Shown: in pieces, positions 6,005 through 60,243 of the stretch
Position numbering within the stretch: position 1 is the stretch's first letter
Layout of the letters: each line of letters opens with the position of its first letter
Assembly: GCA_002898395.1 (NCBI GenBank)
Contig: BEHE01000010.1
Coordinates: 8,092-72,091, forward strand
DNA: 64,000 nucleotides
Direction: 5' to 3'
Origin: Candidatus Calditenuaceae archaeon HR02
GTDB lineage: Archaea > Thermoproteota > Nitrososphaeria_A > Caldarchaeales > Calditenuaceae
Made by a program: the position numbers and the translations under genes
Notes under the pieces: generated by a model
The model's database searches: none
What the model was told of the DNA's origin: nothing
The model's input: the letters and a program-made list of their open reading frames with translations, nothing else

Positions 6005-7369
6005 GCCTCGAAGATTTGCGGTGTAGGATTGAAGGACTGTGTGATTGGTCCAGAGGCTTGGGAACTACTCGAGTATGAGCTGATCCAGCTCGTGGAGGAG
6101 GGCAGAGAGCTGGAAGGCATCCGGAGAGAGGAGATTTTTAGAAGGGTGGCGGAAGGAGGTCTCAAAGCAGCTGAGGCTGTCTTCAGAGAGTTGAGGTCGG
6201 CGCCTATGAGGAGGGATTATCCATACGAGGAGCCCACATCGCTAAGCGAGATAGAGTCGCGCTCTAGGGGTTGGAGGAGGGCTGAGCCTCCGCCTCCAGC
6301 AGTCGTTAGAGACAAGGTTTTAGGAGGTTTCCTCGGGAGGTGTGCTGGAAACATGCTCGGCAAGCCCGTAGAGTCGATAGGAATCTCGCAGGGGTGGAGA
6401 GGTGTCTCGCAGAGGCTGTCGAGGCTAGGCATAAAGAGGCTGGAGGGATACTTTCCAGCAGCCTTCTTTACAGAAGAGGAGCTGCAAAACACCAGCATCC
6501 GTAAAGCTACAGCCGGCAACATAGACAGGGTTCTCAGGGACGACGACATAGACTATACACTCCTCAATCTACGGTTAGTTGAGAAGAGGGGCATAGACTT
6601 CAGCAGCATGGATGTGGGGCGGGAGTGGTTGGAAAACCTACCATACGCTGGGGTCTACACCGCAGAGAGAGTAGCATACAGGAATCTTGTCAACTGTCTA
6701 ACACCGCCAGACACAGCCCTCCACATGAACCCCTACAGGGAATGGATAGGTGCACAGATCAGGGCTGACTTCTGGGGCTACATCTGCCCCGGCGTTCCTT
6801 CACGGGCCGCTGAGCTGGCCCATAGGGACGCCACGTTGAGCCACGTTAAGAATGGGGTCTATGGGGAGATGATGGTTGCGGCGATGATTGCGTGGGCTTT
6901 TGTCGAGGACGATGTGGAGAAGGTCATCGATGCCGGGCTATCCGTCATCCCTGAGAGGTGTAGGCTTAGAGAGGCTGTGGAGATCGTGGTTAATGCTTGG
7001 AAGAGGGGTACTGACTGGGATGAGGCAGTAGGCCTAATCGAGAATAGGCTACACCAATACCACCCAGTCCACACAATACCTAACGCGGCCATAGTCGCTG
7101 CATCACTCCTCTGGGGAGAGGGAGACTATACGAAATCGATAACGCTAGCCGTGTCCTGTGGCCTTGACACAGACTGCAACGGAGCAACCGTGGGCTCAAT
7201 CATAGGGGTCATGAAAGGGTATGATGGGCTTGGAGACCACGCCAAGAGGACTTGGCTCGAACCCCTGAACGACAGGCTTGAGAGCTATATTCCTGGTCTC
7301 CAGCGGCTGAAGATGACAGAGGCCGCTGAGCGGATATTCTTAGCGGCACTAAAAGCAAGCCAAGCATGA
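5966..7369 (+). CDS. ADP-ribosylglycohydrolase family protein (start uncertain; possibly at 6206)
   Basis: Catalytic-region motif GLDTDCNGATVGSIIG and Gly-rich N-terminal VLGGFLGRCAGNMLGKP are typical of DraG/ARH hydrolases. The longest ORF overlaps the divergent rhamnosidase start by 39 bp, so the real start is probably downstream. Confidence 0.55.
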   Translation: MHKYCQSSSLKYQASKICGVGLKDCVIGPEAWELLEYELIQLVEEGRELEGIRREEIFRRVAEGGLKAAEAVFRELRSAPMRRDYPYEEPTSLSEIESRSRGWRRAEPPPPAVVRDKVLGGFLGRCAGNMLGKPVESIGISQGWRGVSQRLSRLGIKRLEGYFPAAFFTEEELQNTSIRKATAGNIDRVLRDDDIDYTLLNLRLVEKRGIDFSSMDVGREWLENLPYAGVYTAERVAYRNLVNCLTPPDTALHMNPYREWIGAQIRADFWGYICPGVPSRAAELAHRDATLSHVKNGVYGEMMVAAMIAWAFVEDDVEKVIDAGLSVIPERCRLREAVEIVVNAWKRGTDWDEAVGLIENRLHQYHPVHTIPNAAIVAASLLWGEGDYTKSITLAVSCGLDTDCNGATVGSIIGVMKGYDGLGDHAKRTWLEPLNDRLESYIPGLQRLKMTEAAERIFLAALKASQA

Positions 7370-8996: not shown

Positions 8997-9664
8997 AACG
9001 CATCATCCTCAAACGGTGCGAAATATCCTATATCTAATATGCTGCCAACCCTTTCCTCTGGCTTTCTCCAAACAGGCTTTACACGCATTCCGACATGAAC
9101 TTTTTCCGGGTCAACTCCCTGAACCTTATGTAATAGGCCTGCGGCATATAGAACTGTTCTGGACGAATTCACCTTTTTAACAGTTCCGTCGAACCAAACC
9201 ACAGCAATAATTAGGGGCCTCTCAAACCTGACCTTAGGATCTGTTCCAATATATGATAACGAGTAGGTCGATATGATACCAGTCCCCGGGTGCTCGATCC
9301 ATTTGTCTACGTCTCTAAAACACCACTCACAGAAGGTGCGTGGAGGTATCAACACGCGTCCACAGCTTTCGCACCCTGTTCCAAGTATCTTACCGTTTTT
9401 TAGACCCTCGAGAAAACGGGAGAAAGCCATCCCTGCCGAGTGTCTATACATGCATGCAATATGCCAGTAGCTTAGGACAAGATTATCGACCTGCCACCCC
9501 TCCATCTCCGTGTGTCTCTTCTCTATTGATGAAGCCCAGCTGTCTAATCTCCCAAACTCTTTATCGAGTCCGTGCCTCTGTATGTACTTGACCAAGTCTT
9601 CTGGTAGTTGTTTTAAGTAGTTTGGCGAGAACCTTGAGGGTGTAACTCTTGTCATGACCTGCAC
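8993..9664 (-). CDS. DUF35 OB-fold/Zn-ribbon protein with N-terminal extension
   Basis: 223 aa. AFSRFLEGLKNGKILGTGCESCGRVLIPP aligns with ALSRFLEGLRLGRLIASKCGTCNHMIIPP of the downstream paralogue. Has an approximately 80-aa N-terminal extension. Confidence 0.6.
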   Translation of the reverse strand: MQVMTRVTPSRFSPNYLKQLPEDLVKYIQRHGLDKEFGRLDSWASSIEKRHTEMEGWQVDNLVLSYWHIACMYRHSAGMAFSRFLEGLKNGKILGTGCESCGRVLIPPRTFCEWCFRDVDKWIEHPGTGIISTYSLSYIGTDPKVRFERPLIIAVVWFDGTVKKVNSSRTVLYAAGLLHKVQGVDPEKVHVGMRVKPVWRKPEERVGSILDIGYFAPFEDDAL

Positions 9665-10806
9665 ACCACTACTTGAGCGACCTGCATCAAGTCACCCCAA
9701 GCCTGCGCAACACCGACACACGCATTCGGAACCTGTCTCTTCCCCGCCCTCCCCGATAGCTGCCAGTAAAGCTCAGCAACCTTCATCAGCCCTGCAGCCG
9801 CTATCGGGTTTCCAACACCTAAGAGGCCGCCTGAAGGGCATGTGGGATAATCTCCATCCCTTTCCAACTGCCCCTCTGCTAAAAGCTTGGGTGCGAGACC
9901 AGGCTTCCCCAGCAGAGCGTCTAGGTGGTGGAGCTCTTTGTAGGTGAATGGGTCATAGGGCTCAAATACATCGATCTCTTTGAGCGGATTGGCTATCCCG
10001 GCCATCTTGTAGGCTTGCTGCGCCGCCAAATAAACGTAGTAGGGGTATGCGAGGTCGCGGTTGGTCCAGAACTGGCTGTCCAGACATGCACCCACGCCGT
10101 CAATCCAAACAGGCGTGTCGGTTATCTTCTTGGCCTCCTCTTCCGAGGCGAAGACAAGGGCTACGGCTCCGTCTGACGATGGGCTGATGTCAAGCCTGTG
10201 CACGGGCCAAACCAGTACAGGCGACTTAAGGACGTCTTCAACGGTTATTTTTGCTCCCAGCTGGGCGTATGGATGGTCTAGGGCGTTACCCTTATTCTTG
10301 ACCGCGACTCGGGCTATCAGCTCCTTAGACAGTTTATGAGCCTCCATGTAGCGGCGCATCTCTAATGCGAATATCCATATCAGGTTTGGGCCGAGAGGCT
10401 GCTCTATAATGGGGTCGAAGATTGTCTTGAAGAGGGGCTGGGCATGTGGGTATGGGTGACTCATCTTCTCCCATGCCACGACCAAAACTTTCTTGAAGGC
10501 TCCTGACGCGACATGCCACCAGCCTGCAACAGCCACACCCACTCCCGTCCCGCCGCCCACATAGATTCTAGAATAGGGTTTTCCAACCCCGTCAGAGGGC
10601 TCAACCCCAACGAGTCCCTTATGATGGTATCCGTCGAATGCGTCGGGTGCCGACCCAGACACTACTGCGTCAATATCTTTGAACTCGAGCCCACAGTCAT
10701 CCAGGCTCTTTCTAGCGGCCTCGTATATCATTTCTTGAGGGGTCATCGGTAGCATGGAGCGGAAATATGTCATCCCCGCGCCAACGATAGCTACTTTTTT
10801 CCCCAA
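9652..10806 (-). CDS. thiolase (acetyl-CoA C-acetyltransferase / SCP-x-type)
   Basis: 384 aa. N-terminal KKVAIVGAGMTYF, thiolase-fold length, and a Gly-rich C-terminal active-site region (GGLLGVGNPIAAAG). Confidence 0.65.
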   Translation of the reverse strand: MGKKVAIVGAGMTYFRSMLPMTPQEMIYEAARKSLDDCGLEFKDIDAVVSGSAPDAFDGYHHKGLVGVEPSDGVGKPYSRIYVGGGTGVGVAVAGWWHVASGAFKKVLVVAWEKMSHPYPHAQPLFKTIFDPIIEQPLGPNLIWIFALEMRRYMEAHKLSKELIARVAVKNKGNALDHPYAQLGAKITVEDVLKSPVLVWPVHRLDISPSSDGAVALVFASEEEAKKITDTPVWIDGVGACLDSQFWTNRDLAYPYYVYLAAQQAYKMAGIANPLKEIDVFEPYDPFTYKELHHLDALLGKPGLAPKLLAEGQLERDGDYPTCPSGGLLGVGNPIAAAGLMKVAELYWQLSGRAGKRQVPNACVGVAQAWGDLMQVAQVVVCRS

Positions 10807-40683: not shown

Positions 40684-41340
40684 TCAGGAGAGGTAACCCT
40701 GCGTGGCTATGTAGCTCCTGACCATCCTCCTCACCCCCCTCCTGATCATGACGGAGAGCGATGCAGGTGATAATCCGAACTCCCTAGCTGCTTCGCGGAT
40801 GGAGACCTTTCTAGGGACGTCGAAGTAGCCCATCTCCAGTGTCCTCATTATCACGTTTAGCTGGGGGGACAAGATCTCGCTATGGCCCTCGAGCTCGACG
40901 CACTCGGTCAGCTCCGCTTCTTCTCCCCTCTCTCTCAACGCCTCTAATATCTTAGGGACCTCTCTATCCGTAGCGACGAATGTCCAGAACAGTTTCCCCT
41001 CCTTAACCCTGTACTCCCCTCTTTTCATCAGACACCTCTTTGCCACGACGCCGCACAAATCACACTTACTCGATCTCACCAGTCCTGAGACAGAGCTGTT
41101 CGGCTTGTTCGGTCTGACGAAGACAATTTCATCGACGTTCATCGACTTCTTGAGAATGCTCATTACCTTCGAGGACGTCATACTATTTCCTGTCTTTATG
41201 AGGAAGAGGTGTGTTATCGATCCGTCGTCGTTTTGGATGCAGTCCAGAATACTTATCGATTTCACACCACACCCCACGATATCTCTAGCCCATGCGGTCA
41301 GTGGGACTTTTAAAGCAACCGTGACCCTCTTTAAAGTCAA
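40684..41340 (-). CDS. HTH_10 (Bat/DmsR-like) transcriptional regulator with Cys-rich N-terminal domain
   Basis: C-terminal LEMGYFDVPRKVSIREAAREFGLSPASLSVMIRRGVRRMV matches the bacterio-opsin-activator HTH_10 domain. The N-terminal domain carries CDLCGVVAKRC (C-x2-C-x6-C). Confidence 0.55.
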   Translation of the reverse strand: MTLKRVTVALKVPLTAWARDIVGCGVKSISILDCIQNDDGSITHLFLIKTGNSMTSSKVMSILKKSMNVDEIVFVRPNKPNSSVSGLVRSSKCDLCGVVAKRCLMKRGEYRVKEGKLFWTFVATDREVPKILEALRERGEEAELTECVELEGHSEILSPQLNVIMRTLEMGYFDVPRKVSIREAAREFGLSPASLSVMIRRGVRRMVRSYIATQGYLS

Positions 41341-41459
41341 GGCTGACTCCTTTTAAAATAGCGGACCCTTGAAATATAACTTAATGTATTCAAGTGTGTG
41401 CGAATGCATACAAATGTATACAAGATCCTGGTGAAATGTGGTGTATAGGGGACTATCGG

Positions 41460-42284
41460 TCAGAGGTCGCCTTTGGAGAACGTGAGCATCGCTATTAAAG
41501 TGCAGGCGGTTCCGATGGCGATCTGGGAGCCGATAAGCACGGATGCCAGGGTTTCGCCGAACTCCCTCTGGATGAAGGCTCCGAACTCTCCTAGGAGCGA
41601 CATCGAGGGGTCGAAGGTCTTCACAATAACGAGCCTCGAGGCTTGGACGGGGTTGGCCAGCAAGAGGGGGGTGACGTCCAACGGACTTAGGTTGAGGAGG
41701 ATGACCGCCGCCATTAGGACGACCTCATAGACCATCACGAGGCCTATCCAGACTCCGAGGGAGAGGGCCAAGGCCGCGAACCTGCTCCTAACGAGGGAGG
41801 AGATCAGGAGACCTATGCCGGCAAAGGAGTAGGCCAGCACGATCGATGCCCACAGTATACTTAGGTAGATCAAGAGGTCTGTCTCGGAGACGAGGAGCCA
41901 TAGGAGCCAAGACGCGAGGCCGTAGCCCAAGACGATAGCAGCCGATATCGAGACTACATTTGATACTAGTCTGCTGAAGACTATCTCCCACCTTGAGGTC
42001 GGGAGCGAGAGCAGAAATTCCATCGTTCCCTTCTCCCTCTCCGATACTAGTGAGAGAGAAGAGGCTATGACCGCTGCTAATGGGACTGCATAAAGGTTCA
42101 GGTTGATGATCCCGGCTATTGCGGCGCTATAGGCCCTGAAGCCGACCTCTCCGAGGCCTAGGGCCCCTAGATAGGAGAAAGCCGAGCCTAATCCGGCGAA
42201 GGAGATTGAGAAGCCGTAGAGCCACCTGCTGCGGAGCGCGGAGATTAGGTCGCGCTTCAAAAGCAGAAGGACTGTAGCCTTCAT
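41460..42284 (-). CDS. nosY: ABC-2-type permease, NosY-like
   Basis: 274 aa, 6 TM segments, directly downstream of and 4-nt overlapping with the nosF-like ATPase in the nos cluster. Confidence 0.55.
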   Translation of the reverse strand: MKATVLLLLKRDLISALRSRWLYGFSISFAGLGSAFSYLGALGLGEVGFRAYSAAIAGIINLNLYAVPLAAVIASSLSLVSEREKGTMEFLLSLPTSRWEIVFSRLVSNVVSISAAIVLGYGLASWLLWLLVSETDLLIYLSILWASIVLAYSFAGIGLLISSLVRSRFAALALSLGVWIGLVMVYEVVLMAAVILLNLSPLDVTPLLLANPVQASRLVIVKTFDPSMSLLGEFGAFIQREFGETLASVLIGSQIAIGTACTLIAMLTFSKGDL

Positions 42285-43105
42285 CCTCCCACGAACTTCA
42301 ACAGCTCCTCAGCATCAGGCTCCTCTATCCACGCATTCCGGAGATCCTTTCCACTCTCCTGAAGCTCTGTAAGGGTAGCGAAGAGGTCCTCGGTCCTGTA
42401 TGTGGTCCAGCCATTATCACTCTTCACATGTACCTTGTAGACCGGTCTCAGGGTCCTCAGCACGTCCTCTGAATGGTAGACGCCTACCATTCTCCCCTCC
42501 TTCAGGACCACTATCTTCTCGAAGGCCGTGATCAGGCCGCTGATGTTGTGAATGCTTACGATCAGACTCTTCCCCCCTCTCATCATCTCCCTCATCATAT
42601 CGTGAACCGTGTTCCTCATCATGGGGTCGAGGTTGTTGAATGGCTCGTCCATGATTATCAGTCTAGGGTTTCCAATCAGTGAGAGCGCGATGGCGAGCCT
42701 CTGGCGTAGGCCGCCCGAGAGTGACCCGACCGGGCTGTTGACGGTGTCCATCAGCCCGAAAGGGCTGAGGGTCTCCTCCAGCGTGATGTCGACCCCCTTC
42801 ATGTCGGATACGAAGTCAACGAGGTCGTAGACCGTCATCTCCTCGGGGAACCTGACCTGCTGAGGAACGTACCCGACCATTCTCCTGACATCCTTCCCCT
42901 TCTTCCTGACATCGAGACCCATTACCATCACTTCGCCCTCGAAGTCGATTAAACCCAAGATGCATCTTAGGAGTGTGGTCTTGCCGGCACCGTTAGCACC
43001 CATTACCAGCACTGATTCCTTGAGCCCGAGCTCGAGGTAGATCGAATCCAGAGCCACGTTCTCTCTGAAGCGCTTCGTCAGGTTCCTGACCTCTATCGCC
43101 TTCAT
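42281..43105 (-). CDS. nosF: ABC ATPase NosF-like
   Basis: Walker A GANGAGKTT, signature LSGGLRQR and Walker B IIMDEPF. Position between nosD and nosY. Confidence 0.7.
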   Translation of the reverse strand: MKAIEVRNLTKRFRENVALDSIYLELGLKESVLVMGANGAGKTTLLRCILGLIDFEGEVMVMGLDVRKKGKDVRRMVGYVPQQVRFPEEMTVYDLVDFVSDMKGVDITLEETLSPFGLMDTVNSPVGSLSGGLRQRLAIALSLIGNPRLIIMDEPFNNLDPMMRNTVHDMMREMMRGGKSLIVSIHNISGLITAFEKIVVLKEGRMVGVYHSEDVLRTLRPVYKVHVKSDNGWTTYRTEDLFATLTELQESGKDLRNAWIEEPDAEELLKFVGG

Positions 43106-44427
43106 CGCCGGCTCGCCGCGATGGCGGCAGCCACGGGTGGGAGCGTTAGCGCTAAAGCAGCAGCTAGCCAGACTGATGACCCTGCATTGACTGTTGGTCT
43201 GAGGGCATTGGGTGACTTGGCTGGGAACTCGTCAATCGCCTTGACGGAGGATCCGAGCCCGCTTAGCGACCTAGAGGTCTTGATTGCTGAGAATCCAGGT
43301 CCGTAGGCGAAGGCCCAGAGCACCGGCCATCTATCTAAGAGATCTTCGACCGTCGACTTGGCGAGGTACTTCTCGCCGATCTGGAGGCCTCTATCGCTCC
43401 AGAAGTTCCTCATCCAAAGGCTCGTGGCCGAGGGCGTTAGGAGAGATATCTGCTGGGCGTTCTCGACTAGGTCGTTCCTCTCGAAGACCGCCGAAGCCCA
43501 GCCGTCAAATCGTACCCCAACGTTATTGAAGGCTATGACGTTCATCCTGAAGCGAAGGCCACCCTCCCTAGGATATGGGGAGTTGACTACGTGGAGGCCT
43601 ACCGCGTTGCCGACGACCAAGTTGCGCTCGAGATAGACATCGGACGACTCCCTAATGAATATCCCCTCGCTGACCGCAAGGCCTCTATTCTCCCTAACGG
43701 TGTTGTTGGTGACCATCAATCTGAATGAGTACATCAACGCCATGCCCACTAGGTTCCCACGTATCACATTCCGATCGATGACATGGCGCGCCGAGTACAT
43801 CAGGTGTATCCCATATCTTGAGCCGAATATCTCATTCGCCATCACTGTGACATTATATGAGTGGTCTGAGTAGACGCCGTCCTTGACGTTCTCAATCCTG
43901 TTCTCTGAGACCCCAACCCCTACCGAGTACCAAAGGTAAACTCCATGTCCCCTATCGTTGACCGATCTCTCGGGGAAGCTCGTCAGGTGGTTTTTGGTGA
44001 CCTTCACGTCCGTAGAGTTGACGACGTAAATTGCGTGGATCACGTTCTCTATCCGGTTACCAGTAATTGTGACGTTCCTGCTGTTGACGATCTTAATTCC
44101 AGCAGGCTCGAACGCCACATCGGGAAAGGAGTTTATGATCCTGAAGCCCTCGAAGATGACGTCATCCGCCTTGATAACGACCACATCACCAGACCCTTTT
44201 CCGTCTACCACAACGTCACCCGCCCCCTTGAGCGCAAGTGGCTTCCATATCCTTATGGGTCCCGCGTAGATTCCCGGCGGAGCCGGTATCGTCGAGTAAG
44301 GTTCGGCGGAATCGATTAGCGATTGGAGATCGGAGATCTGGTGTTTTTCTGGGTAAGCCATGTCGGGAGCGGACTGGACAAGCAAAAAGGTCGTTAAGGA
44401 TATGAGAAGGAATATTGTGTGTAGCAT
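43102..44427 (-). CDS. nosD: NosD-like periplasmic right-handed beta-helix protein
   Basis: 441 aa. N-terminal signal, and repeated about 22-aa units (N-x-I/V-x-x-N...GI.L...) typical of the NosD/CASH beta-helix. Context between nosL and nosF. Confidence 0.65.
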   Translation of the reverse strand: MLHTIFLLISLTTFLLVQSAPDMAYPEKHQISDLQSLIDSAEPYSTIPAPPGIYAGPIRIWKPLALKGAGDVVVDGKGSGDVVVIKADDVIFEGFRIINSFPDVAFEPAGIKIVNSRNVTITGNRIENVIHAIYVVNSTDVKVTKNHLTSFPERSVNDRGHGVYLWYSVGVGVSENRIENVKDGVYSDHSYNVTVMANEIFGSRYGIHLMYSARHVIDRNVIRGNLVGMALMYSFRLMVTNNTVRENRGLAVSEGIFIRESSDVYLERNLVVGNAVGLHVVNSPYPREGGLRFRMNVIAFNNVGVRFDGWASAVFERNDLVENAQQISLLTPSATSLWMRNFWSDRGLQIGEKYLAKSTVEDLLDRWPVLWAFAYGPGFSAIKTSRSLSGLGSSVKAIDEFPAKSPNALRPTVNAGSSVWLAAALALTLPPVAAAIAASRR

Positions 44428-44431
44428 CGCA

Positions 44432-45034
44432 TCAGCTCGCTTTCCTTAAGGTCACTAAACCGATGGCGATGGCGGCCATCATGAGACCGATTGAGAGCCC
44501 GAAGTAGCTGCGGACCGTAATGTTTGCTATCCTATACTCTCCCAAGAACGGGGGGTCGAAGGGCTCTATCTTGATCGGTGCGTCTGGATGAATCGTGTGC
44601 GTGAACCTGTAGAGCCATATGTAGACGAAAGTGAAGAGGCTGATCACCAATGCTGCCAGAAGGATGAGCAAGACCGGCGCCGACTTCCTCCGTCTGGTTG
44701 AGACGGAGAAGCTGTAGGCTGCAGTCACAGCGATCACAGAGGCGTAGAAGTATGGCAGATAAGATATCTCAGGTACGTGTTCGTTGCCGATCATGCTGAG
44801 CCCAACGTAGTGGTTTATGACGTTGACGTCGTTCACAGCTCCCTGTATGCCGCTGAGTGGATAGATGGTGACCTCAGGCCACTTCTGTCCGAAAAACGGG
44901 GCGTTGAATTGGAAGTGCCAGAGGGGGAAGAAGATAGACATGGCTACGAGAAGAAGCGGTACAGCTGAGGCCGCTGCAAGGATGAATCCGCGCTTTTGCA
45001 TGCACATCACCGGAACCTGCTGAGCATGGACCAA
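44432..45034 (-). CDS. hypothetical membrane protein embedded in nos operon
   Basis: 200 aa, about 4 TM helices with a large extracytoplasmic loop (HYVGLSMIGNEHVPEISYLPYFY). No family recognised. Translationally coupled within the operon. Confidence 0.4.
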   Translation of the reverse strand: MVHAQQVPVMCMQKRGFILAAASAVPLLLVAMSIFFPLWHFQFNAPFFGQKWPEVTIYPLSGIQGAVNDVNVINHYVGLSMIGNEHVPEISYLPYFYASVIAVTAAYSFSVSTRRRKSAPVLLILLAALVISLFTFVYIWLYRFTHTIHPDAPIKIEPFDPPFLGEYRIANITVRSYFGLSIGLMMAAIAIGLVTLRKAS

Positions 45035-45489
45035 AAGTCCATCACCTCTCCTTGAAACCTCTCGGCCAGGTTTTCGGCCTCCCCTCGCGACCCAACGGCC
45101 ACCACGCCGTAGCTCATGGGCGTCCAGAGGTTCTTGGGGTCAGCTAGGACGTAGTAAGCTCTTTGCGCATCCAGTTCCTCCTTCGAGATGTAGTCGAAGA
45201 CCCTGGCATCGGCTACAGTTTTACCGGCAGATAATAGGTCGTTGTAATCGCTCGCGAAGCAGCCTACGTCGTCGTAGAAGCGCCATCTTTGCTCGCCTTG
45301 GAGAAGTAGTCCAGCCGCGAACTCGAGCCTGCTGATGAACATCCCACACCTCCTGCATCTGTCCTCACCCAACCTGATCTGAAGACGTGGAGCCACACCT
45401 ATACGCCACTGCAGCGCGATCGCGGCTGCGGCGCCCACCACGGCGACCCCACCTAGCGCAATAAGAAAGGCCCTGCGCTTCATGCTCAC
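45007..45489 (-). CDS. nosL: NosL-like copper chaperone lipoprotein
   Basis: 160 aa. N-terminal signal, and a CRRCGM motif (C-x2-C-x-M) typical of the NosL Cu(I) site. Position next to nosD. Confidence 0.5.
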   Translation of the reverse strand: MSMKRRAFLIALGGVAVVGAAAAIALQWRIGVAPRLQIRLGEDRCRRCGMFISRLEFAAGLLLQGEQRWRFYDDVGCFASDYNDLLSAGKTVADARVFDYISKEELDAQRAYYVLADPKNLWTPMSYGVVAVGSRGEAENLAERFQGEVMDFWSMLSRFR

Positions 45490-45953
45490 GGCAGTACGTT
45501 GATCACGGCTCCCTTATGCGGGTGAAGTGTGCAGTAGATGTTGTACTCGCCTGGGGTCCTGAAGGTGTACCTGAAACTCGCACCAGGATTGATGGGACCA
45601 GAATCGAAATCCGCCGGCGCCTTCCCCTTCATAGTAGTGAAGGTGTGCGGGGTCTCATCCTCGTTGACGTATTCGATGGTGTCCCCCACGTTGAGCGTCA
45701 CTCTGCTGGGGTTGTAGTACTTGTCGCTTATGGTCGGTGGATCTCCAAGCTTCCACCCCTCCGGGGGGAGATATGAGCCTTTCTGGCTGACGATCCTAAC
45801 TACCTTACCCTGCCTCGGCGCTGCACCCCCTCCCAGCATACCTGAAGCGAAGATGGCTCCAACCACTGCTGCCACCACGATTACCACCACAACAGCAGCA
45901 ACGAGAGTCCTGCCCGCCAATCCAACCACCTCAAAGATAATTGGGTTGGGCAC
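45486..45953 (-). CDS. membrane-anchored type-1 copper (cupredoxin) protein, probable electron donor to NosZ
   Basis: 155 aa. N-terminal TM anchor. Cupredoxin ligand pattern H(ETPHTF)...YNIYCTLHPH, but the usual axial Met after the second His is absent. Confidence 0.55.
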   Translation of the reverse strand: MPNPIIFEVVGLAGRTLVAAVVVVIVVAAVVGAIFASGMLGGGAAPRQGKVVRIVSQKGSYLPPEGWKLGDPPTISDKYYNPSRVTLNVGDTIEYVNEDETPHTFTTMKGKAPADFDSGPINPGASFRYTFRTPGEYNIYCTLHPHKGAVINVLP

Positions 45954-45976
45954 GTTATAAATGCGTGGTTAACGTG

Positions 45977-48028
45977 TTAATCGGGCTCAACCTCAAGCCA
46001 CCCAGCCATCTCTAGGTGTAGTGGCGAGCAGAACTCGACGCAGTAGAAGCAGAACACGCCTGACACGTCTGCGACGAACTCTACTGTAGTTGTCTCGCCG
46101 GGCTCGACGCTGGCCATCACGTTATACTCGCTGACAGCGAACGCGTGGGTTGCGTCCTTCGTCGTCTCCACGTTCGTCAGGTGTATCCTCACCAGATCGC
46201 CCTGCTTCACCCTGATGATGTCGGGCGTGATCGTGCTCCTAATGAGGGTGGCGTAAACCTCGGTCACCCACTTCCCATTCTCCTGCTTCCTCTCGATCCT
46301 CTCCTGGCCCTTCTTAATGGCGTACGGGCTGACCTCGAAGGTCTCGGGATCGAACCCCACCGGCGAGTAGACCTCCCACGGCTTCAGCTTCGTCGTGAGG
46401 ATCATCTTGGCGTAGTGTGGCTCGCCGATTCCGATCGGCATGTCGTAAAGGAGCTCCATCTTGTCTCCGGAGATGTCGATCAGCTGGAAGTTCTGCGGCA
46501 GCAGCGGCCCCACGTCAACGAACCTGTCAACCGACCACTTGTTCAGGGCGATGAGGTACTTCCCCTTCGGCGAAGGCGAGTTGCTCTCAGTGGTGCAGAT
46601 GTGTCCGACGTTGTAGTGGATGGGTATCTCGCCGATTTTAGTGAAGGGCTTGTCTCCGGTATAGTCCGGAGGCCCGAGCGTGTACTGGTCCACGGTGTTC
46701 CCGATGAAGCAGCTCACGTACCCGCGCCCCTTGTCGTCGAACTCGTTGTGCAGGGGGCCGAGGCTCGTCTCGATCTGCGCCGCCTTGACGTCCTCGAACC
46801 TGAGGACCGGTACGCCGTACCTGTCAGTCCCCGCGAACCTCTGGTTCCTGATGGCGTCCTTGATCTTCTCGACGTCGTAGATCGTCACCGCTGGCGCCAG
46901 CTTCCCTCCTATAACGACGTACCTGCCGCTGGGAGAGATGTCGCAGCCGTGCGGACTCTTGGGCTCAGGAGCGAAAAAGAGGACGCCCTCCTTGGCAGCC
47001 ACATCGAGCGGCACCGCCTTAATCCCGTTCATCTCGACGTACTTACCCTGCCTGACCAGCTCCTCAGCCCTCTTCCAGTTGATGATGTGGAGGTAGTCGA
47101 AGTCGTTCTTGGAGGCACCGACCTCCAGCGACGGCTTACCCTCCAGAACGCCCCCTATGTGGAGCTCCGTGTTGATGGAGTTCATGAAGGCCCAGCCGTC
47201 GCTCGGCCCCCATCCGACGACCTCAAGGTCCTGCATGTACGGCGGAAGCTCGATCTGGAAGCTCCTGCTCAGGTCGAACCTACCGGTCTTCCTGTCAAAG
47301 GCGATGAAGTTGGCTGTACCCCTGAAGAACTCCTCGAAGTTCTTCTCGGTGAGCTTGATGTAAGTCTTCCCGGGCTTATATCCCTTGCCCGGCTCCCATG
47401 GCGCTGGGAACTGGCTGCCACATGCCACGTACTCGGTGTTCGGCGTCGCGCATGCTCCTCCGTGCTGGGTCTGGGTGTTAGGGAGCTTCACGATGTCCTT
47501 CGTCTCGAAGTCCCTGAGGCTGATCGAAGCTATTCGGGCGTTGAGCTTGTCGCCGATGAAGGCCCACTCGCCGTCGTACTCCGCATTCGTCCTGCTGATC
47601 TCCGGATGGTGCGTGTCGCCCAGCGTCAGGAGTCTGATGCCGTTAGATCCCTTGTAGAGGAGCTTCATTGTCTTGACGTCTCCGTATCCGTAACCCTGCC
47701 AGGGCTCGGGCGTGAAGACCGCGATGACCTTGAGGAGCCTCATCGAGGGTACGCCTATCACTAGGACCTGACCCGAGTGGCCGCCCGAGGAGATCATGAG
47801 GAACTCGTCCTTCCATCCTCCAGGGACGTATGTCTTCAGGGCGGCCCTAGCGTGGATCAGTTCGAGCTTCCTCTGCTCGATTATTTCGACGAGCTCCTTC
47901 CCTAGCGGGGGTGCCGTCGGCGTGAGGAGTCTTCCCCCCGTGAAGCCGGCCGCGGCCCCGGCCACTAGTCCGGCACTGAGAACTGATAGGAACTTCCTCC
48001 GGCTGCTGTTAGACTTAACTACGCCCAA
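45977..48028 (-). CDS. nosZ: nitrous-oxide reductase NosZ (TAT-dependent, clade I type)
   Basis: 683 aa. Twin-arginine signal SRRKFLSVLSAGLVAGAAAG. Beta-propeller His ligands. C-terminal CuA motif H...CFYCVEFCSPLHLEM. TTG start preceded by a GGTGA Shine-Dalgarno. Confidence 0.85.
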   Translation of the reverse strand: MGVVKSNSSRRKFLSVLSAGLVAGAAAGFTGGRLLTPTAPPLGKELVEIIEQRKLELIHARAALKTYVPGGWKDEFLMISSGGHSGQVLVIGVPSMRLLKVIAVFTPEPWQGYGYGDVKTMKLLYKGSNGIRLLTLGDTHHPEISRTNAEYDGEWAFIGDKLNARIASISLRDFETKDIVKLPNTQTQHGGACATPNTEYVACGSQFPAPWEPGKGYKPGKTYIKLTEKNFEEFFRGTANFIAFDRKTGRFDLSRSFQIELPPYMQDLEVVGWGPSDGWAFMNSINTELHIGGVLEGKPSLEVGASKNDFDYLHIINWKRAEELVRQGKYVEMNGIKAVPLDVAAKEGVLFFAPEPKSPHGCDISPSGRYVVIGGKLAPAVTIYDVEKIKDAIRNQRFAGTDRYGVPVLRFEDVKAAQIETSLGPLHNEFDDKGRGYVSCFIGNTVDQYTLGPPDYTGDKPFTKIGEIPIHYNVGHICTTESNSPSPKGKYLIALNKWSVDRFVDVGPLLPQNFQLIDISGDKMELLYDMPIGIGEPHYAKMILTTKLKPWEVYSPVGFDPETFEVSPYAIKKGQERIERKQENGKWVTEVYATLIRSTITPDIIRVKQGDLVRIHLTNVETTKDATHAFAVSEYNVMASVEPGETTTVEFVADVSGVFCFYCVEFCSPLHLEMAGWLEVEPD

Positions 48029-48077
48029 CCTTCACCACATCCTTCCAACATTATCGATTTAGCGGATAAAGAAAAGT

Positions 48078-48101
48078 ATGTGTTTAACATGTTAGACACA
48101 T
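48078..48101. promoter_or_regulatory. 24-bp near-perfect palindrome ATGTGTtTAACATGTTAgACACAT about 60 nt upstream of nosZ start; candidate operator/activator site
   Basis: 11 of 12 symmetric pairs are complementary. It lies upstream of a TTTATC TATA-like element in the nosZ promoter region. Confidence 0.5.
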
Positions 48102-48290
48102 CTTAAGGAGCACCCTATTCTTTCCCTCACACCGTGTTTCCCCCGGCATCAACCTAGAGTATACGATATCACTGAAGATAGATATTACCACGACCTCTGA
48201 ATTCTTAGCGTTGAAGACCCGGTCGACTAAATTAAAACAGAGTGCGTAGTATTGGGTTCGAGATTATGTATTTTTCATCCTTTTTCTCCA

Positions 48291-48688
48291 CTACCCTTGT
48301 TTTATCAACGTTTCTAGGAGGCGTGATAGTTGTGCATTTGGGATTGACCTGTTCTCCCATAGCTCTACAGCACGTTTAATATCTGACCATCTCACATTAC
48401 CCTTAATTATGGCTCTCAAAATCTGTTTGTAATGTCGTGAACGGTGGAATAGGTGGGATAATTCGCTTTTAACCATCGCCATTGCCTCCGCCAAAACAGC
48501 CTCTAGAAGATTCTCATCAACTCTTTTTTCATGGATGCTCTATATCCGAAATAGGTTAACCATCCCACGACTTTGTCCAGAACATCCATGGTCCTTCGCA
48601 ACACATTTTCATCGGGGTTTATGCCTTGCTCCCTAAAGCCTTCTCTGAGGAAGCGGAGGGACTTTTCACTGCTAAACTTTTCAAGCAC
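48291..48688 (-). pseudogene. frameshifted remnant of an archaeal AAA+ ATPase (Arch_ATPase/DUF234 C-terminal region)
   Basis: Two adjacent short ORFs carry ...VVGWLTYFGYR... and ...VRWSDIKRAVE...LSRLLETLIKQG, resembling the C-terminal wHTH/DUF234 part of COG1672 ATPases. No Walker motifs remain. More ORF-poor debris extends to about 49640. Confidence 0.4.
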
Positions 48689-49647
48689 TATTTCTTCTCT
48701 GACTCTGCGTGCAGCGGGCTTTCAGGGTCATCGGCTCCTATAAAATCCATCAGCAGGCCGACCTCGAAGCCAGTGAGATGGGACCTGATGCGTGGGAGAT
48801 TGTCGTGTGAATAGGTTGATGACGCTCCTGAAATCTAATAAAGCGCCGACGAGGGAAGAGCTTAGGAAAATAGTTATGGCAGCGGACTTGAGAGGAGAGG
48901 CCTTATTAACGATGTTCCGTCAAGCGAAATGGGAATAGGAGAGCTTCTAAGCCTAAGGGTTAAAGATGTAGACTTCAACAAGAGGCTAAGGTGCAAAGTT
49001 TTTATGTCCTAGTGTGATGAGTGCCCCCATAATATTGTGTAGAGCGCTATGCCTAGCTGAAAACAGGCATGAGAGCTTAGCAACTATGCAGAAAGCAGAC
49101 AGATATGTATATGACCCAAGAAGACGTCTCTTCTAAAGGTTGGTCTGGATGAGGACGGACAGCCATATGTCTATTTGGACATGGGAGGAAAGGGAAGATC
49201 GAGCGTTATCGCAAACTGTCTTGGAGTTCAACTTTTTCATGAAGCTTTGCGCTCTTGATGTCGGCATCATTAAAATCAAACACTTCTTAACACCGTGGAC
49301 ATAATCCTTTATCGTGTGCGGAGCAATACCTATTCTGCTCAAGTAGCTTACAAACTCATCATAGGAGCTAGTATGGATCAGGCCTTCCTGCCTTTATTTC
49401 CCATAGTACATCGTTAGGTAGCCGTTTTTGAAGCTGCAGATGACGCATAAGGTAGTTAGCCTTACCTCCTTGGAGTTGGTGCTCTTAAACCTTCTATAAG
49501 TCTTCTCGAGGAAGCCTTTTATCTGTGCTTCTATCTTGTTTTTATGTTCCTTTCCTCACCGGTAAGCTTCTTGGTCTAGTATCTTCGTCTTCAATAAATA
49601 GAAACGAATTTTGCTTATAATATTTTATAAAAAGTCAAAGTATATAG

Positions 49648-51165
49648 CTAGATGTCGAAGTAGAGGTAGAATTCGTAGGGGTGTGGGCGTGCGGAGACCT
49701 GTGTGTGTTCTTTCAGACCGTTCTCTATTATTGTCTCTATGAGTTCGCTTGGGAATATGGGTTTTAGGAAGTCGTGGTCTGATTCAAGCTCTTCTATGGA
49801 CTCTCTGAGGCTTCCGGGGAGCTGCTTGATTCCAAGCTGCCTCCTCTTTTCAGGCGATAGCTTGTATATGTCCTCGTCGACTGGGTCTCCTATGTCGATC
49901 TTCTTCTTGATTCCGTCGAGTCCGGCAGCCATCATGGCTGCGAAGCAGAGGTATGGGTTGCATGATGGGTCTGGTGTCCTGAATTCGATTCTTTTCTTCG
50001 CGCTTGCGGCGCGGCCCCTGTGGTATACGGGTACTCTCACGTTTGCTGATCTGTTGCTTCTGCTCCAGGCTATGAAGACTGGGGCCTCGTATCCGGGTAC
50101 GAGTCTCCTGTAGCTGTTGGTTGTGGGTGCTACTATTGCGCAGAGGGCTCTGCTGTGCTCTAGTAATCCTCCTCCGAAGTATCTGCCGAGCTGGCTTAGC
50201 TCAGCGTAGTCATCATTCTCGTCGTAGAACAGGTTTTCATGACCATCTAGCTGTAGGATGGTGTGGCCGGGGTTTGACTTGGTCTTTCCGCTTCTCTGCC
50301 ATAGGCTGACGTGGGTGTGCATGCCTGATGCGTTGTCGCCAAAGATTGGTTTTGGCATAAATGTGGCGATCATTCCGCTCTTGGCTGCTAGGTTTTTGAC
50401 AACGAATTTGTATGTTATGGAGTTGTCTGCCATATTTGTGAGGGTGTCCCTGTACATGTCTATCTCACACTGCCCCGCTGTAGCTACTTCGTGGTGGTGG
50501 GCGTCGCAAGGTATGTGGAAATGATCCGAAAGTATATTGACGCACTCGGACCTGAAGACCATTAACGTGTCGTGGGGTGGAGCGGGGTAGTAGCCCTCCT
50601 TAAACCTGATGGGATAGTTGGTTCCTGCGCTACTCCAGGCCGCCTCCTTCGACTCAATGCTATAAGACTGTCCCCTGTAGGCGTCTAGGACGTCCCAGTG
50701 GACTTTGTCGAAGACGAAAAACTCGATCTCGGGCCCCCAGAAGGAGAGGTCATATCCCTGCTCAGCCGCATACATCTCCGCCTTCTGAGCAACATGGCGT
50801 GGGTCCTTCTCCAGCCTTCCACGCGCCATTCCCCAGCCGACATTGCATATCATCCTCGCGGTCTTCACATGGTCAGGTATCCATGGGATGATGGCATAGG
50901 TTGAGGGGTCTGGATATAGCACTAGGTCGGACTCGTGTATGTCTACGAATCCCCTGATAGATGAGCCGTCAAGCTTTGGGACGCCTGAGGAGAATGAATC
51001 CTCGTCAAGGAATTTGGCTGGAATCGTTACGTGCTGGAGCCTGCCCGGAACATCCGTGAACTGGAGGTCAATGTATTTTATGCCATCCCTTTCAACGCTC
51101 TCCAACACTTGGTCAAGGCCCATCCTCCACGGTACGAGTTCGCCGTTCTCAAAGACAAATGGCAT
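49648..51165 (-). CDS. glnA: glutamine synthetase
   Basis: 505 aa. GS signature region (DGSS...; ...MHTHVSLW...) and overall GS fold. Confidence 0.75.
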   Translation of the reverse strand: MPFVFENGELVPWRMGLDQVLESVERDGIKYIDLQFTDVPGRLQHVTIPAKFLDEDSFSSGVPKLDGSSIRGFVDIHESDLVLYPDPSTYAIIPWIPDHVKTARMICNVGWGMARGRLEKDPRHVAQKAEMYAAEQGYDLSFWGPEIEFFVFDKVHWDVLDAYRGQSYSIESKEAAWSSAGTNYPIRFKEGYYPAPPHDTLMVFRSECVNILSDHFHIPCDAHHHEVATAGQCEIDMYRDTLTNMADNSITYKFVVKNLAAKSGMIATFMPKPIFGDNASGMHTHVSLWQRSGKTKSNPGHTILQLDGHENLFYDENDDYAELSQLGRYFGGGLLEHSRALCAIVAPTTNSYRRLVPGYEAPVFIAWSRSNRSANVRVPVYHRGRAASAKKRIEFRTPDPSCNPYLCFAAMMAAGLDGIKKKIDIGDPVDEDIYKLSPEKRRQLGIKQLPGSLRESIEELESDHDFLKPIFPSELIETIIENGLKEHTQVSARPHPYEFYLYFDI

Positions 51166-58762: not shown

Positions 58763-59239
58763 CTAGTCGACCAGAAAATCTGGGATCCTCTCTATCTCTA
58801 GTAAGGTATCGCAGTACTCGCAGGCTATGACGCCGTGCTCCTTCATAACGATGTAGCGCGGAGTCGCGGGCTCCCTCTCCACGTTGGTAATGCAGCTCGT
58901 CTCAGGGCATCGTATCTTACCCACGATCCTCTCAGGCAGGCCTGGGCTATGCTTCTTGACCTTCCAGTCCCTGATGTAGTTTATGGTTATCTGTGGGAGG
59001 ACGAGTGCAAGTATCTTGGCCTCATCCTCGCTGACCATGTAGTGGTATAGCTTTACGATGTCTTTCCTGCCGAGTTTTTTGCTAGGTACGTTATGAAGCA
59101 CTATGACTGAGACGTCGGGGTCCTGTTTGAGGGATTCTAAGTTCAGGAGTTTTATCACTTGGTCCGCCTTCCAGGCCGGTATATGGTCGAGGACTGTGCC
59201 CCAGTCAATTTTTCTAACTAGGAGCGACTCGCTACTCAT
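58763..59239 (-). CDS. pyrI: aspartate carbamoyltransferase regulatory subunit
   Basis: 158 aa. C-terminal Zn domain CPETSC...CEYC. 4-nt overlap with pyrB. Confidence 0.8.
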   Translation of the reverse strand: MSSESLLVRKIDWGTVLDHIPAWKADQVIKLLNLESLKQDPDVSVIVLHNVPSKKLGRKDIVKLYHYMVSEDEAKILALVLPQITINYIRDWKVKKHSPGLPERIVGKIRCPETSCITNVEREPATPRYIVMKEHGVIACEYCDTLLEIERIPDFLVD

Positions 59240-60243
59240 CCTGCCCCACCAAGAACTAGGTGGAGGAGTGCTTTCCTTATAGGTAAACCATTCCTAGCTT
59301 GCTCAAAATACCACGCGTTGGGGAGCTTATCCACCTCGGGCGAGAGCTCGTCGACCCTGGGGAGCGGGTGCATGATGCCCAAATCTCTCCTACCATAGGA
59401 GAGGAGTTTAGCGTCAACAACGTATGAGCCTCTCACGCGTTCGTACTCTGTCGGGTCAGGAAACCTCTCCTTCTGTATGCGCGTTACATACAAGACATCC
59501 AGATCAGGCATCACTTCCTTGATCTCATCAGCCGCCATCGCCTTCCTATAAGTCACGCCCCTCTCAGAGAGGTAGAGCTCCACCTCTCTTCTTACTTGGA
59601 GAAGTGGTGGCGCCATGAAAAATATCTCGACGCCGTTATAGTTTGCGAGGAGATAGCAGAGCGAGGGGATGGTCCTAGAGTATCTAAGGTCTCCCAGCAT
59701 ACCTATCTTGGCCCCGTCGACCCTGCCGAGCCTAGACTTGATTGTGAATACGTCCAATAAGGCCTGTGTGGGGTGTTCTTGGCTTCCGCTTCCAGCGTTG
59801 ATGACAGGCACAGAAGTAGTCTCTGCCACGAACCTTGCCGAGCCGCGCGCAGGGTGTCTCAAAACAATACAGTCCACCCCATACCCCTCAATCATCTTCA
59901 CAGTATCATAGAGCGTCTCTCCCTTCGCGATAGAGGACACCGCAGGGTCATGTATCGAGAGGACTTCTGCGCCGAGCGACCTCGCAGCTACGTAGAAGCT
60001 TTGGAAAGTCCTCGTCGAAGGCTCGACAAAGATTAAAGCAACCCTCCTCCCGGCGAGGGTGTCCTCTAAATGAATGGTTCCGGAATTGACCCCCTCAGCC
60101 AGCCTGAAGACTAGCTCCGCATCCTCTCGGCTTAGGTCCTTGCAGCTTATGATGTCCCGGCCAGCGAGAGTGTTTTTGAGGCCCAGTGGGGCTCCAACCT
60201 CTCGCCCCCCACTTAGTGATGAGGGCAAAACTAAACCCACCAA
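59236..60243 (-). CDS. pyrB: aspartate carbamoyltransferase catalytic subunit
   Basis: EPSTRTFQSF (STRTR) carbamoyl-phosphate motif and the HPLP motif (IMHPLPRV). Confidence 0.85.
   Translation of the reverse strand: MVGLVLPSSLSGGREVGAPLGLKNTLAGRDIISCKDLSREDAELVFRLAEGVNSGTIHLEDTLAGRRVALIFVEPSTRTFQSFYVAARSLGAEVLSIHDPAVSSIAKGETLYDTVKMIEGYGVDCIVLRHPARGSARFVAETTSVPVINAGSGSQEHPTQALLDVFTIKSRLGRVDGAKIGMLGDLRYSRTIPSLCYLLANYNGVEIFFMAPPLLQVRREVELYLSERGVTYRKAMAADEIKEVMPDLDVLYVTRIQKERFPDPTEYERVRGSYVVDAKLLSYGRRDLGIMHPLPRVDELSPEVDKLPNAWYFEQARNGLPIRKALLHLVLGGAG

Follow-up and report, generated by a model that had tools for sequence, protein, structure and literature searches.

A near-perfect 24-bp palindrome lies upstream of nosZ, the gene for nitrous-oxide reductase, in Candidatus Calditenuaceae archaeon HR02, an aigarchaeal (Caldarchaeales) metagenome-assembled genome (MAG) from a 65-70 °C bioreactor and the first Aigarchaeota genome reported with nosZ (PMC5877337). 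We analysed it within a 64-kb stretch of that genome, referred to here as the window, which also holds the gene for a 218-aa HTH_10 regulator that is 100% identical to HRbin02_01134 of HR02. An earlier note on this DNA had proposed the palindrome as a candidate operator of nosZ and the HTH_10 protein as the prime candidate to bind it. The features on which the question turns are the following:

48078..48101, no strand assigned, 24-bp near-perfect palindrome and candidate operator, ATGTGTTTAACATGTTAGACACAT, 11 of 12 pairs complementary
48084..48095, no strand assigned, conserved 12-bp dyad core, CTAACATGTTAA on the nosZ strand; family consensus C(T/G)AAC-NN-GTT(A/C)G
48064..48076, minus strand, T-rich TATA-like stretch, CTTTTCTTTATCC, beginning 7 nt past the 12-bp core and assigned from its position
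48032..48036, minus strand, Shine-Dalgarno-like GGTGA, 4-8 nt before the TTG start codon
45977-48028, minus strand, nosZ, nitrous-oxide reductase, the proposed target of the dyad, with Pfam nos_propeller and cupredoxin/COX2 domains
40684-41340, minus strand, NarO-like HTH_10 regulator of 218 aa, the proposed dyad binder, with HTH_10 and Cys34, Cys93, Cys96 and Cys103

The palindrome is made up of two 12-nt arms with a spacer of 0, and its inner TAACATGTTA forms a perfect 10-bp palindrome; direct reading and a palindrome scan thus reproduce the 24-bp dyad, with its 11 pairs of 12 and its 10-bp core, as first described. The window has just two 24-bp palindromes in which 11 or more of the 12 pairs are complementary; first-order Markov simulations predict 0.15 per 64 kb and an analytic estimate gives 0.14 per 64 kb, or about 3e-4 per 150 nt. 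The other one (59566-59589, AGAGAGGTAGAGCTCCACCTCTCT, 11/12 pairs) lies within a minus-strand open reading frame (ORF; 59236-60243, 335 aa) and was set aside. When the window was scanned with a 16-bp matrix trained solely on the sites of other lineages, the top match in its entire length was 48082-48097, at 17.4 bits, against a best score in shuffled sequence of 13.0 on average (sd 2.2). The second-best match (40942-40957, CTCTAATATCTTAGGG, 13.9 bits), inside the regulator ORF, scored about as high as the shuffled maximum and was treated as chance. An excess of about 2 sd over the shuffled maximum is by itself not overwhelming, and the case for the nosZ site rests on its conservation at orthologous loci.

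Searches of genome and metagenome collections for NosZ gave 22 loci of the archaeal type and 141 bacterial loci. The archaeal-type NosZ proteins, from Calditenuis, Caldarchaeum, Pelearchaeum, other Nitrososphaerota and Ferroglobus, are 66-94% identical to that of the window, with Ca. Calditenuis fumarioli at 94%. In an alignment of ten archaeal nosZ upstream regions (NosZ 74-94% identical), the dyad core and the start-codon region were the only conserved blocks, and in the majority of the related archaeal lineages that we compared, the inner 12-16 bp of the dyad, with the consensus GTCTAAC-AT-GTTAGAC, have been kept before nosZ as the one conserved block. With at most one mismatch, the 10-bp core of the window occurs within 200 nt upstream of nosZ at 14 of the 22 archaeal-type loci, and upstream of none of the bacterial nosZ genes (0/141 loci, 27 kb in total). 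The individual sites, with loci from other genomes given as L numbers, read as follows; the core-bearing nosZ or nos-operon loci also include L081-83.

Window, nosZ: GTGTCTAACATGTTAAACAC
L081, nosZ: GTGTCTAACATGTTAGACAC, a perfect 20-mer
L003/5/7/11/90, nosZ: GCGTCTAACATGTTAGACGT
L001/84, nosZ: TTGTTTAACACGTTAGACGC
L085, nosZ: CGGTTGAACACGTTAAACGC
L004/8, nosZ: GCCCCTAATATGTTAGGTAT
L086, nosZ: ATACCTTACATGTAAGGTAT
L088, cupredoxin-nosZ operon: ATACCTAATATGTTAGGGAC
L089/L010 (Ferroglobus-type), nosZ: ACCACTAAAATGTTAGGGTA
L172, between divergent nosZ and cupredoxin genes: CTGTATAACATGTTAGACGA

This phylogenetic footprint, kept across lineages while the flanks diverged, substantiates the proposal of a real cis-element, and as judged from these comparisons the dyad upstream of nosZ is an evolutionarily conserved regulatory DNA site. 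What is conserved as a functional unit, however, is the inner 12-20 bp and not the full 24 bp on which the earlier note had focused. Changes between lineages tend to be symmetric: L086 reads CTTACATGTAAG, with A/T at positions 3 and 10 replaced by T/A, and the flanks vary in matched pairs (GTC...GAC, CCC...GGG, ACC...GGT). The centre of the dyad, where a hairpin would have its loop, is its most constant part, and the outer stem positions vary. Symmetric changes around a constant centre point to recognition by a two-fold symmetric protein dimer rather than to an RNA stem.

Related loci carry several boxes each (2-4), placed before nosZ, cupredoxin, hemerythrin, nirK and regulator genes. L086 has them before nosZ and a cupredoxin/hemerythrin-like operon, and L089 before nosZ and a divergent cupredoxin gene; in L088, one precedes the cupredoxin-nosZ operon and another the regulator gene. 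In the window, a single strong box is joined by one weak candidate (45969-45980). The second box of L086 (CTTACATGTTAG, 10498-10509) abuts TATAAT and would drive a membrane cupredoxin gene (9999-10484, minus strand), after which comes a hemerythrin/RIC-like gene (9434-9997) with weak matches to YtfE/DnrN. The canonical box was not found upstream of nosZ in two nos lineages, L009 and L038/L087, and L006 has only a degenerate one (CTAATATGTATG). At L009 (~5990-6030) and L087 (~5920-5945), a T-rich TATA-like element follows a loosely similar sequence (CCTAAAGATTAAGG and TCTAACCGTATATTTAAGG, respectively); such sequences in L009 and L038/L087 could be degenerate or differently spaced boxes.

The dyad centre was measured at 61.5 nt upstream of the nosZ TTG, in keeping with the roughly 61 nt given previously. 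Next after the dyad on the minus strand come ACTTTTCTTTATCC (48077-48064) and then GGTGA (48036-48032), so that the proposed Shine-Dalgarno sequence is also found on reading the DNA. The TATA-like TTTATC of the earlier note needs a slight correction: it does form part of the T-rich stretch at 48076-48064, but the element that aligns across lineages is CTTTTC, a few bases upstream, and the window sequence CTTTTCTTTATCC aligns with CTTTTAC, CTTATAA and CTTTC of orthologous promoters. In most of the 23 sites compared for geometry, the dyad centre lies 47-70 nt ahead of the start codon. The distance from the 12-bp core to the T-rich element (CTTTTC, CTTTTA, CTTATAA or CTTTC, and CTATTC in Nitrososphaeria) is fixed across lineages at 7-9 nt, except that Pelearchaeum and L086 have a good TATA box after 2 nt. 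With the TATA-like element centred near -26, the dyad centre would fall near -45, and if the T-rich element of the window is indeed its TATA box, the nosZ transcript would have a 5' leader of about 16 nt that holds GGTGA. A dyad directly upstream of a T-rich TATA-like element at a fixed spacing fits an activator site, as had been suggested from its position in the window.

If the dyad is a protein-binding site, the obvious question is which protein binds it. Domain annotation of the nos island and its flanks revealed no regulator gene other than that of the HTH_10 protein, and no CRP-family gene in the island, in agreement with the view that this protein is the only regulator there; the flanks are of a housekeeping nature (glnA, molybdopterin oxidoreductase, PCNA, Thi4, a peptidase and a pyridoxal-phosphate (PLP) enzyme). 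A regulator gene is present in or beside the nos cluster in ten lineages, namely the window, L001/84, L085, L081-83, L003, L005, L090, L088, L089 and L172. Beyond nosZ, eight contigs that lack this gene, from uncultured Nitrososphaeria (some labelled Bathyarchaeia), carry the regulator between a hemerythrin gene and nirK, the product of which matches TIGR02376 at 324 bits (cut-off 296) and has a plastocyanin-like domain. In these Nitrososphaeria loci, the box CCCTAAC-NN-GTT(A/C)GGG stands upstream of nirK, of the hemerythrin gene and of the regulator gene. Exact matches to the pattern CKAACNNGTTMG number 13 in 106 kb, where 0.40 would be expected, and all but one of these are no more than 1.2 kb from the regulator gene. 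The box, then, travels with the regulator gene and not with nosZ, and this is our strongest argument that the regulator is its binder. The co-occurrence of the regulator family with the dyad, even in nirK/hemerythrin loci devoid of nosZ, strengthens the earlier nomination of the HTH_10 protein as the probable binder.

The Nitrososphaeria cassette itself (L165-L171, L173, L174; e.g. L169 5189-8807) comprises a divergent hemerythrin gene, the NarO-like regulator, a nirK-plastocyanin-like fusion and a ThiS-like gene, with dyad boxes in each intergenic region; L173 and L174 have additional boxes before cupin and unknown genes. Boxes before the regulator gene itself are found in L088, L167, L168 and L174.

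A profile search collected at least 261 members of the regulator's family, of about 220 aa each, and those from a named source are all from uncultured MAGs. The HTH_10 domain (PF04967) is matched at residues 160-205 with E = 4.8e-10; no other Pfam or NCBIfam domain was found in the 218-aa protein, and specifically no PAS or GAF domain. Among 37 sequences with 22-60% identity to the window protein, Cys34, Cys93, Cys96 and Cys103 never vary, which puts the description of the regulator as cysteine-rich on firmer ground. In an AlphaFold model (pLDDT 81), two alpha/beta domains precede the helix-turn-helix (HTH), and the Cys loop at residues 100-104 is of low confidence, as would be expected of a metal site left unmodelled. 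A sequence search of the PDB with the regulator found no relative, and the sole significant fold match of the model was Ta1207 of Thermoplasma (5m86, E = 1e-4), which does not identify the sensor domain. A tblastn search of plasmids with the regulator gave one weak match only, to the HTH, in Natribaculum. We found no publication on this regulator family or this box in Aigarchaeota or Thaumarchaeota.

Both the box and the regulator have counterparts in the denitrification system of haloarchaea. A semi-palindrome, CGAAYATDKTYG, has been described for haloarchaeal denitrification promoters (Hattori et al. 2016, J Bacteriol 198:1077, as cited by Miralles-Robledillo et al. 2023, PMC10062603). In Haloferax mediterranei it reads CGAACATGTTCG in the nosZ and nor promoters and CGAATATGTTCG in that of nirK, 66-79 nt upstream of the ATG, point mutations in CGAACATGTTCG lower the activity of the nosZ and nor promoters, and other haloarchaea, too, have the motif in their denitrification promoters (PMC10062603). 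The proteins proposed to bind it are NarO or Bat-like members of the HTH_10 group (PMC10062603, PMC11218638). Deletion of narO abolishes denitrifying growth (Hattori 2016, as cited in PMC10062603), and NarO of Haloferax volcanii, an oxygen-responsive activator of denitrification genes, is an HTH_10 protein with a CXnCXCX7C motif that is viewed as an oxygen sensor (PMC11218638).

The haloarchaeal box is likewise a 12-bp dyad, with the centre AACATGTT (AAYATGTT), and 10 of its 12 bases are shared when CGAACATGTTCG is set against our lineage consensus CTAACATGTTAG. The two differ only at the symmetric positions 2 and 11, which are T and A here but G and C there. Of our 23 sites, 19 have T at position 2 and 19 have A at position 11; the haloarchaeal outer CG...CG (CGAA/TTCG) is confined to a few Nitrososphaeria half-sites that read CGAAC or GTTCG, several of the sites there being hybrids, CTAAC-NN-GTTCG. 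The distance to the start codon is similar for nosZ and nirK alike (66-79 nt in Haloferax, 47-70 nt here), and both systems pair with HTH_10 regulators without PAS and GAF domains. The hosts differ: Halobacteria there and, here, thermophilic and uncultured Nitrososphaerota together with a Ferroglobus MAG.

A similar picture emerges for the proteins. NarO of H. volcanii (WP_004041376, on pHV3) is similar in length, at 211 aa as compared to 218 aa. The two proteins share the HTH_10 domain at the C-terminus and a set of four conserved cysteines, of which one comes early and three are clustered about 60 residues further on, and both genes adjoin denitrification genes; the narO-nar intergenic region on pHV3 holds GCGAATCCGTTCGC. 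A profile-profile comparison (hhalign) of the window family with the NarO family gave a probability of 98.6% and E = 6e-16 over 120 columns, covering the Cys region, the middle domain and the HTH, with the first ~80 residues unaligned. By BLASTP, only 31 HTH residues align between the window protein and NarO, and the residues aligned with the HTH helix of NarO differ (PASLSxxLRR against RSTFxEHL). Matches to the NarO family all bear PF24277 and sometimes PF15915. As the window family matches neither model but is homologous, we regard the regulator as a distant relative of NarO with the same architecture rather than a member of the curated NarO domain family. The earlier label of a Bat/DmsR-like HTH_10 protein accordingly stands as to the domain, but distant NarO-like is the better description.

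Other regulators are more remote parallels. Bat is also an HTH_10-family activator with an upstream activating sequence (UAS) just upstream of the TATA region, but, unlike the window regulator, it has PAS and GAF domains, and it controls purple-membrane genes. The UAS that Baliga and DasSarma reportedly defined in 1999 for the bop regulon of Halobacterium, ACCcnactagTTnG, at about -52 to -39, has the same xAC-NN-GTx layout and a comparable position, a resemblance that we take as a lead only. The bacterial regulators of the FNR/CRP family (DNR, NnrR, FNR) share the logic of a dimeric sensor on a dyad upstream of nir, nor and nos promoters that responds to O2 or nitric oxide (NO), and FNR uses a Cys4 Fe-S cluster; their TTGAT-N4-ATCAA boxes, protein fold and transcription machinery are different.

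Taken together, we think it rather probable, from comparative sequence evidence, that a dimer of the NarO-like 218-aa regulator of the nos cluster binds the dyad as the operator of the nosZ promoter and activates the gene. Each HTH_10 domain would read one CTAAC half-site, and the 2-bp separation and symmetric flanks would make up a site of ~16-20 bp, placed ~14-16 nt upstream of the weak T-rich TATA-like element and centred near -45. The bound regulator would help to recruit TFB and TBP and thereby switch nosZ on, and low O2 and/or NO would be sensed through the Cys4 site, which probably holds an Fe-S cluster or some other redox-sensitive metal centre. That the protein binds the dyad, that it activates and does not repress, what it senses and where transcription starts are all inferred here, activation specifically from haloarchaeal mutagenesis and promoter geometry.

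Another conserved element of the locus also has to be considered:

41383..41424, minus strand, array of TGTATACA-like units at an exact 10-bp spacing, directly upstream of the TATA-like TTATATTT of the regulator gene

The units in the window read TTGTATACAT, TTGTATGCAT, TCGCACACAC and TTGAATACAT, and there are 2-4 per locus. The same array is found at L001 (16655-16672), L085 (12644-12671), L003 (7424-7451), L005 (7431-7448), L081 (~9933-9952) and L172 (~4905-4945), and in each Caldarchaeales locus the sole cluster of such units is directly upstream of the NarO-like regulator gene. It was not found in L088, L089 or the Nitrososphaeria loci, in which the dyad box occupies that place. The idea that the array is a disguised copy of the dyad was rejected, as the conserved centre AACATGTT has no counterpart in it. 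One possibility is that the array is the sign of a further regulator, which would control the NarO-like one as part of a cascade.

Several observations weigh against activation by the linked regulator. The regulator promoter of Caldarchaeales bears not the dyad but the TGTATACA array, which is equally possible as the regulator's site. The linkage between box and regulator is not universal: the box-bearing loci L004/L008, L086 and L006 show no regulator gene within the flanks covered, and for the nos lineages by themselves the linkage statistics are weak (Fisher test ~0.1). In L004 and L086, the dyad abuts the TATA box and overlaps the position of the B recognition element (BRE), an arrangement that in archaea often means repression. 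The comparison with NarO has its own weak points, in that the cysteine spacing differs (C17, C80, C82 and C90, i.e. C-x62-C-x-C-x7-C, in NarO as opposed to C-x58-C-x2-C-x6/7-C in the window family) and that none of 11 window-family members scanned matched PF24277 or PF15915 at E up to 1. Lastly, the binder of the haloarchaeal motif was still called undisclosed in 2024 (PMC11218638).

The promoter arrangement in L004 and L086 raises the alternative that the same regulator binds the same operator as a repressor, occluding BRE/TATA and being released on N2O, NO or anoxia. In L004/L008 and L086, a good TATA box follows the end of the dyad after 2 nt (CTAATATGTTAGG-TATAAT and CTTACATGTAAGG-TATAAAA), and the dyad covers the BRE position, as is typical of archaeal repressors; the boxes before the regulator gene in L088, L167, L168 and L174 would fit negative autoregulation. 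Bacterial NO-responsive Fe-S regulators such as NsrR are, moreover, repressors. Yet mutation of the near-identical haloarchaeal box lowers rather than raises promoter activity, and loss of narO abolishes denitrifying growth (PMC10062603; Hattori 2016, as cited there). In the window and its closest relatives, the weak TATA-like element 7-9 nt past the core fits dependence on an activator. We hold repression to be unlikely, though still a live alternative, with its best case at loci that have the dyad directly against the TATA box or in front of the regulator gene.

Alternatively, the dyad could be a genuine operator bound by an unlinked factor, with the HTH_10 protein binding another site such as the TGTATACA array. 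This is conceivable chiefly because the regulator promoters of Caldarchaeales carry a different conserved element: in that group, the array keeps closely to the regulator gene and to no other gene, and there are the loci already mentioned in which the box is present and no regulator gene appears in the flanks covered. H. mediterranei, too, has been reported with the box but without a NarO homologue (PMC10062603), although a 2024 study named a Bat-like HTH_10 gene inside its nirK-nor cluster as the likely regulator (PMC11218638). On the other hand, the box follows the regulator into loci without nosZ, as the 12 of 13 exact matches illustrate. Furthermore, L088, L089 and the Nitrososphaeria loci combine regulator and box in the absence of the array, and the nos lineages without a canonical box (L009 and L038/L087) are likewise without a linked regulator gene in the flanks covered. 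An unlinked binder seems improbable to us.

That the palindrome acts as a nucleic-acid structure, whether RNA hairpin or terminator, DNA cruciform or recombination site of a mobile element, is very doubtful: it can be drawn as a hairpin, and mobile-element debris (an MCM fragment) lies in the 1.6 kb upstream, but the RNA fold of the dyad region is not more stable than that of shuffled sequence (z = -1.07), a terminator scan of the region showed no terminator-like site, an Rfam search of it gave no match at E up to 1, conservation peaks at the centre rather than along the stem, and the box is kept in loci without such debris and before genes on either strand. A functionless chance palindrome is hardly credible, for although a single instance at 0.15 expected, picked from the many features that 64 kb offers, would not be decisive alone, conservation across genera, fixed position and absence upstream of bacterial nosZ refute it.

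The genes between nosZ and the regulator are, in order of transcription:

45486-45953, minus strand, cupredoxin gene, nos accessory
45007-45489, minus strand, nosL, nos accessory
44432-45034, minus strand, gene for a predicted 200-aa membrane protein between nosL and nosD, without Pfam or NCBIfam match
43102-44427, minus strand, nosD, nos accessory
42281-43105, minus strand, nosF, nos accessory
41460-42284, minus strand, nosY, nos accessory

This nos accessory block spans 41460..45953. The 200-aa membrane protein occupies the same position in all archaeal nos clusters examined, with 34-68% identity. NosZ itself starts at TTG, and its N-terminus, MGVVKSNSSRRKFL, is a Tat signal. One further element at the start of the block is speculative:

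45969..45980, no strand assigned, weak candidate second box, TTAACACGTTAA on the minus strand, overlapping the nosZ stop codon

It is followed after 6 nt by ATTTATAA (45955-45962), directly before the annotated GTG of the membrane-anchored cupredoxin gene, and has degenerate counterparts in L001 and L085 (TTAACCAGTTCC and CTAACCCGTTCG); it was not among the top matrix matches in the scan of the window. We speculate that an internal promoter under the control of this box could produce a leaderless transcript with its start ~25 nt further in.

On the other side of the dyad, the ~1.6 kb up to glnA (48100-49648) have a G+C content of ~44%, compared to 60% in nosZ, with broken frames and no long ORF, and 48291-48494 on the minus strand matches the C-terminal winged helix of MCM (E = 1.5e-8). 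Judged by its sequence, this stretch resembles what is left of an integrated mobile element after decay. In L001 and L085, an intact divergent gene is found at the position of this debris.

No biological sink for N2O other than nitrous-oxide reductase is known, and next to nothing has been learned about the regulation of this enzyme in archaea. The likeness of sequence, spacing and protein architecture suggests that the aigarchaeal box and regulator are a variant of the haloarchaeal NarO/denitrification-box system. It is possible, at slightly less than even odds in our estimation, that the dyad and the Cys4 HTH_10 protein are one instance of an old and widespread archaeal N-oxide/oxygen regulon in which NarO-like sensors recognise C(T/G)AAC-NN-GTT(A/C)G operators. 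Such a regulon would span Halobacteria, Archaeoglobi (Ferroglobus), Caldarchaeales and mesophilic Nitrososphaeria. Its targets would include two copper enzymes, NosZ and NirK, along with the cupredoxins that donate electrons to them and proteins of the hemerythrin/RIC-like kind. It would also put a name to the protein that binds the denitrification box in haloarchaea. A paper of 2026 states that the O2/NO sensor of ammonia-oxidising archaea is not identified (PMC13464753), and the regulon, if real, would supply a concrete candidate and a lead on sensing in the relatives of these organisms.

The locus offers a compact test pair of a 218-aa regulator and a 20-bp site, the proteins of a thermophile should be stable, and the comparative data predict the pairing of protein and sequence in four archaeal lineages. 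If the pairing is confirmed, Nitrososphaerota would have their first regulator-operator pair for N-oxide respiration, and the motif could serve to predict the N-oxide regulons of uncultured archaea from sequence alone.

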